Source: Candidatus Eiseniibacteriota bacterium
GTDB lineage: Bacteria; Eisenbacteria; RBG-16-71-46
DNA length: 64,000 bases
NCBI GenBank assembly: GCA_044223005.1
Contig: JBGAML010000011.1
Span: 73,169-137,168, forward strand
Reading direction: 5' to 3'
Part shown: positions 4,725-14,191 of the stretch, piece after piece
How positions within the stretch are numbered: the first letter of the stretch is position 1
Layout: each line of letters starts with the position of its first letter
Position numbers and translations under genes: made by a program
The notes under the pieces: generated by a model
Told to the model about the DNA's origin: nothing
Databases searched by the model: none
What the model saw: the letters and a program-made list of their open reading frames with translations, nothing else

Positions 4725-4752
4725 TGAAGTCAGTTGGCCGCCTTGCCGATAC
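4725..4752 (+). promoter_or_regulatory. sigma28-type promoter of csrA and flgM-like gene
   Basis: TGAAG-N15-GCCGATAC, 60 nt upstream of csrA. Confidence 0.6.
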
Positions 4753-4811
4753 GCCTCTTGAAGCTGGAAACACCCCGGGCGTAGCGGTTCGCAGTGCGGA
4801 GGCTATTCACG

Positions 4812-5033
4812 ATGCTGGTCCTAACAAGGAAGTTAGGAGAGAACATCCGGATCGGAGACACGGTGAAGATCACCGTGCTGGAAGTCCGATCCGGCCAGGT
4901 CAAGCTCGGCATCGAGGCTCCCCCCGAGGTGAAGGTGCACCGGGAGGAGATCTACGCCCGGATCCAGGAAGAGAACCGCCGTGCCGCCGGGCAGCGTCCC
5001 GACGAGGCGGCCGGACCCGGCAAGAAGCCCTGA
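4812..5033 (+). CDS. csrA: carbon storage regulator CsrA
   Basis: [16 protein letters not shown]...[27 protein letters not shown]. Confidence 0.97.
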
Positions 5034-5100
5034 CGTCGACGCATCCCCGCGAAGGTGCCCCGGTTGGGGGGACTGCCTTCGAGCGCCGCGACGAGGAGTC

Positions 5101-5310
5101 ATGAACGCGACTCGCCGACGCATCACCCGCAGCACTCGCAGCACCCGAGCGACCGCCGCTCCTGTCGTGGCGATCGCCGGGTATCCCGAAGTCGTGCGCC
5201 TGACGCGCGTGCGCACGGCGCTGCAGCGCATCCGGTCGGGCTACTACGACCGGGACGAGGTGAGGGATCGCCTCGCGGCCGCGGTGTTGAAGGAGCTGCA
5301 GAAGCGGTAG
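5101..5310 (+). CDS. FlgM-like anti-sigma28 factor
   Basis: 69 aa, GAGGAG RBS; C-terminal VRLTRVRTALQRIRSGYYDRDEVRDRLAAAVL resembles FlgM sigma28-binding helices. Confidence 0.65.
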   Translation: MNATRRRITRSTRSTRATAAPVVAIAGYPEVVRLTRVRTALQRIRSGYYDRDEVRDRLAAAVLKELQKR

Positions 5311-11048: not shown

Positions 11049-11437
11049 CGCCTCCACTCATGGCCGGGCCGCCGACGCCCTGGGACGTCCTGCACCAGCG
11101 GCTGCGGCGGGAGGTCGAGGCCGTGCGGGAGCGCGGCGACGAGCCGCAGGCCGCGGCGCTCGCGACGATCCTCGACGACTGGTGGCCGGAACAGCAGGCG
11201 TGGTGCGAGCGGGCGTGCGACGTGCTCGGCGTGCATCACGAGATCAACAACGCACTGGTGGGCATCCGGGGCAACGCGCAGTTGCTCCTCCGCAACCCCG
11301 CGGCATTGCCGGCGGGAATCCGTGAACGACTGGAGGTCGTCCTCCGTGAATCGGGCCGAATCCAAGAAGCGACCAGCCGCCTCCGCGAGCTCAAGACGGG
11401 CCTCGGTGGCCCCGCTTCCGGCGTCCGCGCGGCCTGA
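11045..11437 (+). CDS. stand-alone HisKA/DHp protein lacking ATPase domain (putative phosphotransferase)
   Basis: ATGA coupling; H-box HHEINNALVGIRGNAQLL; 130 aa, no N/G boxes; ends VRAA. Confidence 0.7.
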   Translation: MTPPLMAGPPTPWDVLHQRLRREVEAVRERGDEPQAAALATILDDWWPEQQAWCERACDVLGVHHEINNALVGIRGNAQLLLRNPAALPAGIRERLEVVLRESGRIQEATSRLRELKTGLGGPASGVRAA

Positions 11438-12401
11438 GCGCCGCGAGGCTCCGGAACACGGCGGGCCGCGCGAGCGCAAGCGCGACGCGCGCGGCACGAT
11501 CGAGATCCCGCGCGGTCACGACCGCCGGGCGGCGTCGGGCTGCCTGTGGGACGCCTGCGAGGCGCTGCTGGCGTCGCTGGCGGAGCCCGAGGCGCTGCCG
11601 CGGGCGCTGGACAAGCTGCTCGACGCGTTCGAGTGCGACGGAGTCGCGCTGCACGCGGTCGGGCCGCAGGGCGTGCTCGAACCGTGGTGTGCGCGCGGGG
11701 ACTGGGAGACGGCGCCCGGCGACCTGCGCGAGTGCATCGGCCTGCCGCTCTTCCGTGGGCGCGAGCGCGTCGGGGCGCTCGACCTGCGCGGGCGCAAGGG
11801 CCAGCGCTGGCGGCCGGAGCAGCAGTCGCTCGTGCGCACGGCGTCCGGGGCGCTCGGCGCCGCACTGGGTGCGCGGCTCGAGCTCGAACGGCTGCGGCGC
11901 GCGCCGGGCCGCGACGCGGTCACGGGCCTGCCGGACGCGAAGGCGTTCCACGCACGGCTGCTCGAGGAGTTCGGGCGCGCGCAGCGCAGCGGCCTGCCGC
12001 TCGCGGTCGTGACGCTCGACCTCGATCACTTCGCGGCGCTGAACCAGAAGTACGACCGCGCGACGGGAGACCAGGTCCTCGCCGAGTGCGCGCTCGTGCT
12101 CAAGGTGACGCTGCGCGAGGGCGACTACCTGGCGCGGCTCACGGGCAACGAGTTCGGGATCGTGCTGCCCGACTGCGACCTCGCGCCGGCCCGCCGGCTC
12201 GCGGAGCGGCTGCGGCACGCGGTCGAGGAGCACCGTTTCGCGCGCGCCGGCAAGCTGAGCTGCTCGGCCGGCGTGGCGTCGTCCCCCCGGGACGGCATGG
12301 ATGCGACGGAGTTGCTGGCGGCCGCCGAGCAGGCGCTCGGCGTGGCCAAGAAGGCGGGGCGCCACCGGACGGCGGCGAGCGGTCCCTCGCACACCCACTG
12401 A
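11406..12401 (+). CDS. GAF-like plus degenerate GGDEF protein
   Basis: DAVTGLPD, DLDHFAALN, LREGDYLARLTGNEF, SAGVA; start uncertain (11322 or 11406). Confidence 0.85.
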   Translation: MAPLPASARPERREAPEHGGPRERKRDARGTIEIPRGHDRRAASGCLWDACEALLASLAEPEALPRALDKLLDAFECDGVALHAVGPQGVLEPWCARGDWETAPGDLRECIGLPLFRGRERVGALDLRGRKGQRWRPEQQSLVRTASGALGAALGARLELERLRRAPGRDAVTGLPDAKAFHARLLEEFGRAQRSGLPLAVVTLDLDHFAALNQKYDRATGDQVLAECALVLKVTLREGDYLARLTGNEFGIVLPDCDLAPARRLAERLRHAVEEHRFARAGKLSCSAGVASSPRDGMDATELLAAAEQALGVAKKAGRHRTAASGPSHTH

Positions 12402-12430
12402 GACGATCTCGCGCGGAAGGCGACGCGAAC

Positions 12431-14191
12431 ATGACCCACGAACGCGATCCTCGGAACGACAACACGACGTCCCCCGGCAACCTCGCCGAGGCGGGACCCG
12501 GCGTGACGCCGGGCCTGCCGCGCGTGCTGGTGGTGGAGGACGACGCCACGGTCGCGGACGTGCTGCGCGAGGTGCTGCTCGACCAGCCGTACGAACTGAA
12601 GTTCGCCGCGTCGGCCGAGGAGGCGTTCAAGCAGATCGCCGAATCGTTCCCCGACGTGATCCTCACCGACATCAGCCTTCCCGGCCAGTCGGGCCTCGAC
12701 GTGATGCGGCACGCGCGCGCGATCGACTCCGAAGTGGCCGTGATCCTGATGACGGGCTACGCGTCGGTGCAGACGGCGATCGACGCCCTGCGCCAGGGCG
12801 CGGACGACTACGTCACCAAGCCGTTCGAGGACATCGCCGACCTGCCGGTGCTGGTCGAGAAGCGCCTGAAGGGCAGACGGCTGCGCGCCGAGAACCGCGC
12901 GCTGCTCGAGGAGCTGCGGCGCAAGAACGAGCAGCTGCAGCGCCACGAACAGGAGCTGCGCGAACGCGTCGAGCGCGCCACGTGGCAGATGAGCGCGCTT
13001 TACAAGGTGTCGATCGAGATCGGCGCCGATCTCGAACTCGAACCGCGCCTGCGGCACATCGCCCGGACGACGGCCACCCTGATGGACGCGCGCGGCGCGG
13101 CGGTCTACCTGGGGCACGAGGATTCGGGCGAGCTCCGGCTCGCGCAGGTCCACGGCGTCACGGCAGAGGCGACCAACGGCAGCCCGCCGCTGGTGCTCGC
13201 GGCCGGCCCGGTCGGCCTCGCGGCCTTCCAGCTCGCGCCCGTGCGGCACGGCGATCCGGCGGGTGCGCCGTTCGCGGTGCCGGGCATCACCGAACCTGCG
13301 CACACGCTGCTCGCGGTGCCCATGCTGCAGGGCGAGCGGGCGCTGGGCGTGCTGGTGGCGCTGGACCGCGCCGACGGATTCGGGATTCCCGAGCAGGAGT
13401 TCCTCTCGCTCTTCGCCTCGCAGGCGGCGGTGCAGATCCGCAACTCGCAGCTGTTCGAGCACACCAAGAGCCTCGACCGCATGAAGTCGGACTTCGTGGC
13501 GGCCGTCTCGCACGAGACGCGCACGCCGCTCACGTCGGTCAAGGGCGCACTCGAACTGCTGAGCGACGACCGCTACTTCCACAACAACGAACAGCAGTCG
13601 AAGCTGCTCACGATCGCGCACGCGAACGCCGAGCGGATGCTGCTCCTCATCAACGACATCCTCGACTTCTCCAAGCTCGAGTCCGCCTCGCTCACGATGC
13701 TGCCCGAGCGCCAGCGGCTGGAGCCGGTGATCGAGCAGGCCGCGCACAACCTGCGCCTGCTGATCGAGGAGCGCCGGATCCATCTCGCGATCCAGCTGCC
13801 GGGCGACCTGCCCGATGCGCACATCGATGCGCACCGGATCGCGCAGGTGCTCACGAACCTGATGTCGAACGCCATCAAGTTCTCGCCGGCCGGGGGCGGG
13901 ATCGAACTGAGCGCGACGACCGAGGGTGCGTCGATCCGGGTCGCGGTGCGCGACCACGGCGCGGGCATCGCCGCGAACGACCTGCCGAAGCTCTTCCGCA
14001 AGTTCCAGCAGGTCGACTCGAGCTCGACCCGCAAGGTGGGCGGCACGGGACTCGGCCTGGTGATCAGCAAGGGCATCGTGGAACAGCACGGCGGCCACAT
14101 CGGCGTCGAGAGCACGCCGGGGGAGGGCAGCACGTTCTGGTTCACGATCCCGACCGCGTCGAGCGCGGCCAGCACGGCAGCCGTCGCCTAG
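12431..14191 (+). CDS. REC-coiled coil-GAF histidine kinase
   Basis: VLVVEDD, LTDISLPG, SHETRTPL, NLMSNAIKF, DHGAGI, GGTGLGL. Confidence 0.93.
   Translation: MTHERDPRNDNTTSPGNLAEAGPGVTPGLPRVLVVEDDATVADVLREVLLDQPYELKFAASAEEAFKQIAESFPDVILTDISLPGQSGLDVMRHARAIDSEVAVILMTGYASVQTAIDALRQGADDYVTKPFEDIADLPVLVEKRLKGRRLRAENRALLEELRRKNEQLQRHEQELRERVERATWQMSALYKVSIEIGADLELEPRLRHIARTTATLMDARGAAVYLGHEDSGELRLAQVHGVTAEATNGSPPLVLAAGPVGLAAFQLAPVRHGDPAGAPFAVPGITEPAHTLLAVPMLQGERALGVLVALDRADGFGIPEQEFLSLFASQAAVQIRNSQLFEHTKSLDRMKSDFVAAVSHETRTPLTSVKGALELLSDDRYFHNNEQQSKLLTIAHANAERMLLLINDILDFSKLESASLTMLPERQRLEPVIEQAAHNLRLLIEERRIHLAIQLPGDLPDAHIDAHRIAQVLTNLMSNAIKFSPAGGGIELSATTEGASIRVAVRDHGAGIAANDLPKLFRKFQQVDSSSTRKVGGTGLGLVISKGIVEQHGGHIGVESTPGEGSTFWFTIPTASSAASTAAVA

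Follow-up and report, generated by a model that had tools for sequence, protein, structure and literature searches.

The stretch of DNA analysed here, a 64,000-nucleotide window of a Candidatus Eisenbacteria genome (G000; coordinates are window positions unless a contig is named), carries a gene cluster of the flagellar regulatory type: a sigma factor of the FliA/WhiG family, called SigW here, a FlhG-like ATPase, CsrA, a FlgM-like protein, a sigma-54 activator and several signalling proteins. In our view the cluster is probably an ancestral sigma-54-to-sigma-28 cascade that lost its tie to flagellar genes in this family and now serves a regulon made up mainly of signalling genes, csrA and the FlgM-like gene forming its feedback arm. 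What was observed directly comprises the genes present, the promoters and how well they are conserved, the distribution over the phylum and the split of the sigmas into two clades. A repurposed cascade had already been proposed from the window alone. That proposal is upheld in that the cluster is a second set of regulators, is kept in relatives without flagella and has mostly signalling targets; it has to be qualified in that the genome is flagellated and that sigma-28-type promoters do stand before flagellin.

Two sets of flagellar-type regulators in one genome

The original prediction had described a cascade without flagellar structural genes. For the window this stands: genome-wide searches for FlhA, flagellin, Flg_bb_rod and FliW gave no match on the window contig, in agreement with the predicted absence of flhF, flhA, fliW, flagellin and che genes, and a family scan of 26 further large open reading frames (ORFs) of the window found no flagellar or chemotaxis family. 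For the genome it was mistaken. A full flagellar gene set is present on contigs C14 and C17 (Table 1), whose genes were named by Pfam scans of all frames with a high G+C content at the third codon position. The genome-wide searches found three Flagellin_N genes on C14, and the only FlhA of the genome and four rod and hook genes on C17, while FliW was not found anywhere in the genome. The G+C content of C14 and C17 is the same as in the rest of the genome, and two relatives (G069, contig C28, and G031, contig C1) carry both sigma types and FlhA on one long contig, which makes a binning artefact unlikely.

The flagellar cluster has regulators of its own. The gene order on C17 is flhA-flhF-MinD-type flhG-sigma, the MinD-type gene lying between flhF and the sigma gene, and the sigma factor, SigFla, passes the TIGR02479 model with 245 bits (246 for SigW; cut-off 189.6). 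A FlgM paralogue is encoded on C14 and is recognized weakly (22.9 bits against PF04316 and 25.3 bits against TIGR03824, for which the cut-off is 40.75). With flhF, flhG, a sigma and a FlgM paralogue already present in the flagellar cluster, the window set is a second one and not simply the flagellar regulators in a different place. A complete flagellar set elsewhere, with sigma-28 promoters upstream of flagellin, had been expected to reduce the window locus to a relocated ordinary flagellar regulator cluster; such a set exists, but it is accompanied by its own regulators. Next to the three Flagellin_N genes there are FlbT and FlaF genes (C14:19104-20434 and 20464-23500), here in a bacterium of the Fibrobacteres-Chlorobi-Bacteroidetes group. 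FlbT and FlaF are flagellin regulators best known from Alphaproteobacteria.

Distribution and origin of the two sigma factors

Two samples were used to follow the cluster through the phylum: 80 SigW-related loci kept from 117 candidates, most of them labelled Candidatus Eisenbacteria, and 151 genomes of the phylum with a completeness of at least 80%, which include G000 and also the unpublished G014, a genome that none of the conclusions depends on. Identity to SigW over the 80 species-level loci is 54-93%, and all 80 keep the neighbourhood as far as their contigs reach. By tblastn, the receiver (REC) protein was found in 78 of them, the REC-GAF kinase in 78, the FlhG-like ATPase in 77, the activator in 76, the PAS kinase in 73, the GGDEF protein in 70, the HisKA-only protein in 67, the 76-amino-acid protein in 63, CsrA in 51, the SpoIIE protein in 41, the FlgM-like protein in 37 and the sigma-4-only protein in 32. 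The same searches found no flhF or flhA within 8 kb in any of the 80 loci.

A SigW-type sigma is present in 146 of the 151 genomes, but FlhA scores above its cut-off in 51 and SigFla orthologues occur in 28. SigFla lies within 2-3 kb of FlhA wherever the two share a contig (about 20 of the 28 genomes); no FlhA match was obtained in four of the SigFla genomes (G048, G087, G116 and G139). Neither FlhA nor SigFla, flagellin (0/5) or FliF (0/5) was detected in five relatives of 99-100% completeness (G008, G001, G044, G003 and G015), of which G008 belongs to the same genus as G000. Three of these non-flagellated relatives, G008, G001 and G044, have the whole cluster in the same order, as does G047, and csrA is kept in the non-flagellated relatives whose loci reach it. 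A single family, and even a single genus, can contain both flagellated and non-flagellated members, as well as members with one sigma-28 paralogue and members with two.

Two side observations concern the flagellar clusters of these genomes. Members of family f10 (G020, G053, G099 and G144) have two full-length FlhA types, scoring about 880-890 and about 757-784 bits against Pfam, which indicates that the phylum has two kinds of flagellar cluster and that some members carry both. At G031:C1:1690443-1692397, in a single-contig genome, FlhA is split into three frames, either because the cluster is decaying or because of long-read frameshift errors.

The relationship of the two sigma factors was assessed with a maximum-likelihood tree of 40 sequences, rooted at its midpoint only and built without an outgroup from other phyla. 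Ten rows form a SigFla clade and 30 form a SigW clade; the two separate with 100/100 support, on long branches of about 1.6 changes per column each, and the two types share about 40% identity. The SigW clade follows taxonomy and contains the sigmas of the non-flagellated genomes, the sigmas that adjoin flhA (families f3, f5, f6, f10, f12 and f13) and the window type. The genomes G025, G005 and G102 (families f3, f5 and f10) show the order flhA-flhF-flhG-like-SigW, followed by the GGDEF and REC-GAF kinase genes; in families f1, f4, f8 and f14 the flagellar cluster is accompanied by a separate sigma. Because a SigW orthologue stands beside flhA-flhF in six other families, SigW can be recognized as the ancestral flagellar sigma of the phylum. 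Judged by the tree and the gene order, it is the vertically inherited flagellar sigma, which was kept after flagellar loss and was uncoupled from flagellar genes in this family. SigFla may have arisen by transfer or by an old duplication.

The window cluster, its promoters and their targets

Promoters of the sigma-28 type combine a TAAA-like -35 element, a spacer of about 15 and a -10 element similar to GCCGATAA. Two forms were distinguished in this work, class A (TCAAG-N15-GCCGATA) and class B (TCAAG-N15-CCGAGA). A genome scan for T[CG]AAG-N15-GCCGA[TA]A found 18 sites at spacer 15, those at 4725 and 2108 among them, whereas every other spacer length between 8 and 23 gave 0-3. The motif 5' of csrA was found in 46 of 54 related loci, with near variants in the other eight, and the one at 2108 is kept in the window and in three of the four loci that reach this site (L128, L130 and L147). 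The genome-wide peak at spacer 15 and the conservation of the csrA site indicate that the sigma-28-type promoters predicted at 4725 and 2108 are real. The ten exact class A sites of the genome precede genes for a GAF kinase, a PAS-kinase-REC-Hpt hybrid, a REC protein, TPR and HEAT proteins, an AhpC-like protein, two unassigned proteins, an 18-codon micro-ORF and the C14 FlgM paralogue; nine of them lead to genes without a flagellar family. Having no flagellar linkage in the window, mostly non-flagellar targets and a place in genomes in which FlhA, flagellin and FliF were not found, SigW does not have the profile of a functional flagellar class-3 sigma. A NCBIfam search with 14 proteins, mostly unnamed class A and class B targets plus the 76-amino-acid protein, named only the C14 FlgM paralogue, and that weakly.

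The class A form is not tied to the presence of flagella. Among the TCAAG-N10-20-GCCGATA matches in the five non-flagellated relatives, 51 of 62 have N15, compared with 10 for the reversed control, and genomes with a SigW-type factor as their sole sigma-28 carry the motif as well. Six of the seven class A sites examined in G008 (all but that of csrA) precede orthologues of G000 class A targets, namely the GAF kinase, TPR, REC and FHA proteins, the hybrid kinase and a 320-amino-acid protein; the same is true of three of the 13 sites examined in G001. Class B was found at 11 sites of G000 at spacer 15 and at 0-1 sites at spacers out of codon phase. Together with near variants of the -10 element (CCGATA, CCGAAG and CCGACG) it precedes motA, two flagellin genes, two cheW genes and the genes of CheY-like REC, HDOD, rod-like and STAS proteins. 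At N15 there are no class B sites in the five non-flagellated relatives; in five two-sigma genomes, 33 of 41 matches have this spacing.

The 2108 promoter lies in the 3' end of the SpoIIE gene. SpoIIE and trpA are convergent, and the micro-ORF is the only ORF between the promoter and trpA. Its peptide is kept in all four loci that reach the site (L128, L129, L130 and L147), which represent at least three genera; no class A-type motif was found upstream of the peptide in L129. A CsrB-like small RNA, considered because of GGA motifs, was dropped in favour of this conserved ORF. A third exact class A site was noted just upstream of the window (G000:C21:72272-72298), 208 nt 5' of the gene for a 380-amino-acid protein without known family, whose C-terminal part is the first window ORF, ending at 481. 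On C14, positions 15402-19171 between the FlgM paralogue and unrelated genes encode a HEAT-repeat serine/threonine kinase, an FHA protein with a sigma-28-type promoter (N16) and a receiver; the non-flagellated G008 has the FHA gene too, together with this promoter. The flagellin leaders of four relatives (L190, L191, L192 and L193, from G126, G025, G005 and G102, respectively) all carry a conserved GGGTAYGGAWACCC hairpin, and the three with a mapped promoter (L190, L191 and L193) are 125-168 nt long. With GGA in its loop, this hairpin looks like a candidate CsrA binding site.

The other end of the predicted cascade is the sigma-54 promoter at 8341. The element TGGCAY-N5-NTGC was found within 250 nt upstream of the REC gene in 75 of 75 related loci but in only 27 of 1700 random 250-nt windows, and both this conservation and the location before REC confirm it. 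Genome-wide, the strict sigma-54 pattern is barely enriched (12 sites at spacer 5 and 2-10 at other spacers), so the case for this promoter rests on position and conservation. As rpoN is present (C3:47104-47580), the promoter has the GG-N10-GC form and an activator gene is nearby (6615-8042), the operon is predicted to be activated in a sigma-54-dependent manner.

The FlgM-like protein encoded at 5101 has 30 orthologues that share the C-terminal motif VRLxRVxxAxxRIAxGYYDRxEVRxxL. Twelve of the 30 match PF04316 weakly (best E 0.0023), and the motif aligns pairwise with the C14 FlgM paralogue (E 6e-4). The 5101 product itself, called FlgM-like in the original prediction, has no significant FlgM match. 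A structure of the sigma-28/FlgM complex has reportedly been solved for Aquifex aeolicus. In our case SigW residues 50-289 were modelled with the 5101 product in three runs, from alignments of our own. The pair scored 0.64 (runs 0.63-0.65), the best control scored 0.00, contact agreement was at least 48% and the predicted local distance difference test of the partner was at least 58; the score mark is reached by 116 of 157 solved pairs and by 2 of 215 mismatched pairs. Residues 30-66 of the FlgM-like protein, its C-terminal helices, are modelled on SigW residues 217-278, which are region 4, as in the sigma-28/FlgM complex. Unlike the FlgM of that complex, the window copy falls below every family threshold, and a profile built from the alignment of the 30 orthologues matched none of the solved chains at E<=10. 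By the shared motif and the modelled complex, the 5101 product is a probable anti-sigma of SigW. Because a sigma-28-type promoter precedes csrA and the flgM-like gene and the model passes, negative feedback through this promoter is plausible. Relatives that have the gene but no flagellum could not release the brake by flagellar export.

The genes of the window were identified by Pfam and NCBIfam scans of candidate frames. The G+C content of the window DNA is 67-77%, which makes ORF lists noisy; nonetheless, every element listed in the original prediction was found where it had been placed (Table 1). The Pfam matches of SigW regions 2, 3 and 4 are each above cut-off, which places it in the FliA/WhiG sigma-28 family, and it has an N-terminal extension of about 50 residues rich in Ala, Pro and basic amino acids. 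CsrA exceeds the equivalog cut-offs (NF002469, 96.2 bits against 73; TIGR00202, 93.9 against 70.1). Synteny of the SpoIIE gene, seen in 41 of the 80 related loci, is limited by the ends of the loci. From 8407 onward the operon genes form a tightly packed plus-strand row with the overlaps TGATG, GTGA, GTGA and ATGA, and the REC-GAF kinase gene adjoins the sigma gene throughout the phylum. The 76-amino-acid protein had no NCBIfam match, and an overlapping ORF at 8660-9274 had no Pfam match.

Three products of the operon deviate from their canonical relatives. The ATPase has the deviant Walker A sequence GKGGVGKS and is encoded directly before the sigma gene, as is characteristic of FlhG/FleN; its best NCBIfam match is minD_arch (146 bits, below cut-off). 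The N-terminal motif DQAxxLR, by which FlhG activates FlhF (bioRxiv 10.1101/2022.03.19.484964), is absent from the window protein and from 13 of the 14 SigW-linked orthologues inspected; it does occur in the C17 FlhG (KDQAQGLRE) and in G102. The GGDEF domain expected from the original prediction is there, but its A-site reads TGNEF, which is not an intact cyclase motif; the RxxD I-site (REGD) is kept five residues upstream. The A-site of the relatives varies (GGDEF, GGEEF, AGDEF, SGDEF and others). In G000 this protein is more likely to bind cyclic di-GMP than to synthesize it, as its sites suggest. At the position after REC, 26 of 37 ORFs (36 related loci plus the window) match sigma-70 region 4 at E<=0.01. 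The window region 8407-9050 also matches PhyR models weakly (PhyR_sigma-like, 20.2 bits against 27; PhyR of NCBIfam, 23.5 bits). The possibility that the sigma-4-only protein is a recent decoy copy of SigW region 4 was rejected, the similarity between the two being weak (29% over 48 amino acids, E 0.038). Farther along, at 20778-25390 (minus strand) and 24640-28648 (plus strand), the window has two tandem M13 peptidase genes beside genes for a TPR-CHAT protein and an ECF-type sigma (region 2).

Table 1. Features of the window and flagellar genes on other contigs of G000
Feature	Position	Strand	Evidence and remarks
18-codon hydrophobic micro-ORF	1903..1959	-	GTG start, GGAGG 6 nt upstream; hairpin terminator near 1846-1885
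SpoIIE/PP2C-type phosphatase	2071..4773	-	Pfam SpoIIE 5.9e-41; divergent from csrA; start codon uncertain
Class A promoter TCAAG-N15-GCCGATA	2108..2082	-	Exact match, 3' end of SpoIIE gene
Class A promoter TGAAG-N15-GCCGATA	4725..4751	+	Before csrA
csrA	4812..5033	+	Pfam CsrA 4.3e-26; ATG at 4812, alternative GTG at 4794
FlgM-like 69-amino-acid protein, probable anti-sigma of SigW	5101..5310	+	GAGGAG ribosome site
PAS-HisKA-HATPase sensor kinase	5354..6676	+	Start 5354 or 5477; Pfam/NCBIfam
NtrC-type sigma-54 activator (REC-AAA-HTH_8)	6615..8042	+	Pfam/NCBIfam
Sigma-54 promoter TGGCAC-N5-CTGCA	8341..8356	+	TGGCACacggaCTGCA; 50 nt 5' of REC start
Single-domain receiver (REC) protein	8407..8802	+	Pfam Response_reg 5.8e-28
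Sigma region-4-only helix-turn-helix protein	8802..9050	+	r4_2 30.6 bits, cut-off 25.7
76-amino-acid protein, no known family	9047..9277	+	tblastn, 63/80 related loci
MinD/FlhG-like (MinD/ParA-type) ATPase	9274..10167	+	Pfam ParA, CbiA, AAA_31
SigW, FliA/WhiG-family sigma factor	10179..11048	+	TIGR02479 246.4 bits, cut-off 189.6
DHp (HisKA)-only protein	11045..11437	+	Pfam; 67/80 related loci
GAF-like and degenerate GGDEF protein	about 11406..12401	+	GGDEF domain 112 bits; start uncertain
REC-GAF-HisKA-HATPase kinase	12431..14191	+	Pfam/NCBIfam
Flagellar genes of C14	C14		FlaF, FlbT, three flagellin genes, sigma-54 activator, rod protein, FliE, FliF, FliG, FliH, FliI, FliJ
Flagellar genes of C17	C17		CheR, MotA, MotB, FlgK, FlgI, FlgA, FlgF/G, sigma factor, FlhF, FlhA, FlhB
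Flagellar genes of C17, continued	C17		FliR, FliQ, FliP/O, FliM, FliL, FlgE, FlgD, FliK

Interpretation and relation to known systems

Taken as a cascade, the cluster would work as follows. The PAS kinase would phosphorylate the NtrC-type activator, which would fire the sigma-54 promoter at 8341. The operon would then make the receiver, the sigma-region-4-like helix-turn-helix protein, the 76-amino-acid protein, the FlhG-like ATPase, SigW, the DHp-only protein and the degenerate GGDEF protein. SigW would read the class A promoters, including that of csrA and the FlgM-like gene, and the FlgM-like product would bind SigW region 4 and close a negative loop. Class A promoters would also serve the micro-ORF and at least ten further genes, mostly for kinases, receivers and TPR/HEAT proteins. 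The flagellum would be served separately by its own flhF, flhG, SigFla and FlgM paralogue, with class B promoters at motility and chemotaxis genes. A developmental role like that of WhiG is pure conjecture.

Several observations weigh against this reading. The two promoter classes are not cleanly split: a class A-spaced promoter also precedes the FlgM paralogue of the G000 flagellar cluster, and a TCAAG-N15-TCCGATA site lies 5' of one Flagellin_N gene on C14, so SigW may still feed flagellar control. In the flagellated relatives, the FlgM paralogue has a sigma-28-type promoter in 12 of 12 loci, eight with class A and four with class B spacing. TAAAG-N14 or N15 promoters were found at three of the four major flagellin genes inspected in single-sigma flagellated genomes (none was found upstream of the fourth, in G005), and as the SigW orthologue of these single-sigma families lies in the flagellar cluster, both spacings are probably readable by a sigma of the SigW type. 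That class B sites are missing from genomes without flagella is confounded, since the target genes vanish together with the flagellum, and gene absences as a whole rest on metagenome-assembled genomes. As for the brake, neither PF04316 nor TIGR03824 matches the window protein, which PF04316 misses in the genome-wide search even at E<=1, and the pass of a model that was built from our own alignments, with a like complex already solved, speaks for likeness, not for binding. The pairing of sigmas with promoters is inferred, as are the feedback loop, the signal that enters the cascade and the physiology that it controls.

The cluster could consist of ordinary flagellar regulators located apart from the structural genes, in which case the main task of SigW, the FlhG-like protein, CsrA and the FlgM-like protein in this genome would be the timing of flagellar assembly, for example as an upper tier above SigFla. 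The genome does have a complete flagellar set, CsrA and FlgM are classical flagellar regulators, SigW orthologues stand beside flhA-flhF in six other families, and class A-spaced promoters occur at the flagellar-cluster FlgM paralogue and at one Flagellin_N gene. We regard this explanation as unlikely: flhF, flhG, a sigma and a FlgM paralogue are all present in the flagellar cluster already, the window cluster, its promoters and several targets persist in relatives without detected flagellar markers, nine of the ten exact class A sites precede non-flagellar genes, and the FlhG-like protein lacks the FlhF-activating motif. The depth of the split between the sigma clades, their low identity and the sharp peak of both CCGAGA and GCCGATA at a single spacer (N15) are difficult to reconcile with two redundant paralogues that both read both promoter forms, classes A and B being drift within one regulon. 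The absence of CCGAGA-type sites where SigFla is absent, confounded as it is, points in the same direction. We find redundancy quite improbable, even though both classes have the -35 element TCAAG, the promoters of the FlgM paralogue switch between the two spacings among relatives and single-sigma genomes use N14 and N15.

We consider it most improbable that the cluster is a functionless remnant, in decay, of a flagellar system that has been lost. The degenerate and variable GGDEF A-site and the rapid divergence of the sigma-4-only and 76-amino-acid proteins would fit decay, but the frames are intact, SigW is conserved over the 80 loci, the sigma-54 promoter (75/75 loci) and the csrA promoter (46/54) are kept, and the cluster is retained in 146 of the 151 genomes. 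A more elaborate scheme is a two-state switch, in which SigW and SigFla would be insulated by a one-base spacer difference and by the -10 element (GCCGATA or CCGAGA) but cross-wired. SigW without a flagellum would drive the signalling regulon and the anti-sigma of SigFla, and its own non-exportable FlgM-like brake would be released by the receiver and the sigma-4-only protein acting as a split PhyR-like sigma mimic. We offer this scheme as a speculation that is unlikely to be correct. The uncoupled ancestral cascade kept for a mainly signalling regulon is the explanation that we prefer.

Known systems provide precedents. Among non-flagellated Legionella, L. oakridgensis keeps FliA and FlgM only, and a L. 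longbeachae subclade keeps FliA, FleN and FleS/FleR (PMC5655016). As in Legionella, a sigma-28 and a probable anti-sigma outlast the flagellar structural genes in Eisenbacteria, and they are accompanied, as in the L. longbeachae subclade, by a FleN/FlhG-type ATPase and a sigma-54 two-component pair. Unlike the Legionella case, which concerns few species, retention in Eisenbacteria is phylum-wide (146 of 151 genomes), the regulators lie in one conserved operon, predicted to be driven by sigma-54, with receiver, sigma-4-only, DHp-only and GGDEF-like proteins, and G000 also has a flagellum, served by a second sigma-28. In Actinomycetota the WhiG1 clade is linked to flagella and the WhiG2 clade has been co-opted and tied to cyclic di-GMP signalling, with diversified regulons (PMC13595943). 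Eisenbacteria likewise have two sigma-28 clades, one flagellar and the other probably co-opted. Here, however, the co-opted clade is the ancestral one and has kept its place among the flagellar genes of six families, transcription of the sigma gene is predicted to depend on sigma-54, and the predicted brake is a short FlgM-like protein co-transcribed with csrA instead of an anti-sigma of the RsiG type.

Polar flagellates have a flhA-flhF-flhG(fleN)-fliA operon under sigma-54 activators (Pseudomonas putida, PMC6424431; polar flagellar programme, PMC7064773). The window cluster resembles this hierarchy in its NtrC-type activator, its sigma-54 promoter, its flhG-fliA pair and the MinD-type ATPase gene directly before the sigma gene; it differs in that no flhA or flhF lies upstream, the FlhG-like protein is without DQAxxLR and the targets are mostly non-flagellar. 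CsrA and FliW control flagellin translation in Bacillus and Campylobacter (PMC13443453, PMC4894983). The likeness here is a csrA gene under a sigma-28-type promoter and adjoining a flgM-like gene, but no FliW was found in G000 and csrA is also kept in non-flagellated relatives. The Legionella and WhiG1/WhiG2 precedents mean that the kind of system is already known. What is new in Eisenbacteria is how the operon is composed, that it is retained throughout the phylum and that two sigma-28 sets, whose promoter forms can be told apart, occur side by side; no description of the cascade in Eisenbacteria was found in the portion of the literature covered by our search.

Eisenbacteria join Legionella and Actinomycetota as a third lineage, independent of the other two, whose flagellar sigma-28 module has outlived the flagellum or parted from it; in this case the lineage is a whole uncultured phylum. 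The comparison is unusually clean, as flagellated and non-flagellated genomes, and genomes with one and with two sigmas, occur within one family. It makes several questions testable without culturing: how paralogous sigmas are insulated from each other, how a FlgM-type protein is released without an export apparatus and what an FlhG-type ATPase does without FlhF. It also carries a warning for annotation, as fliA, flhG, flgM and csrA are not predictive of motility in this phylum.

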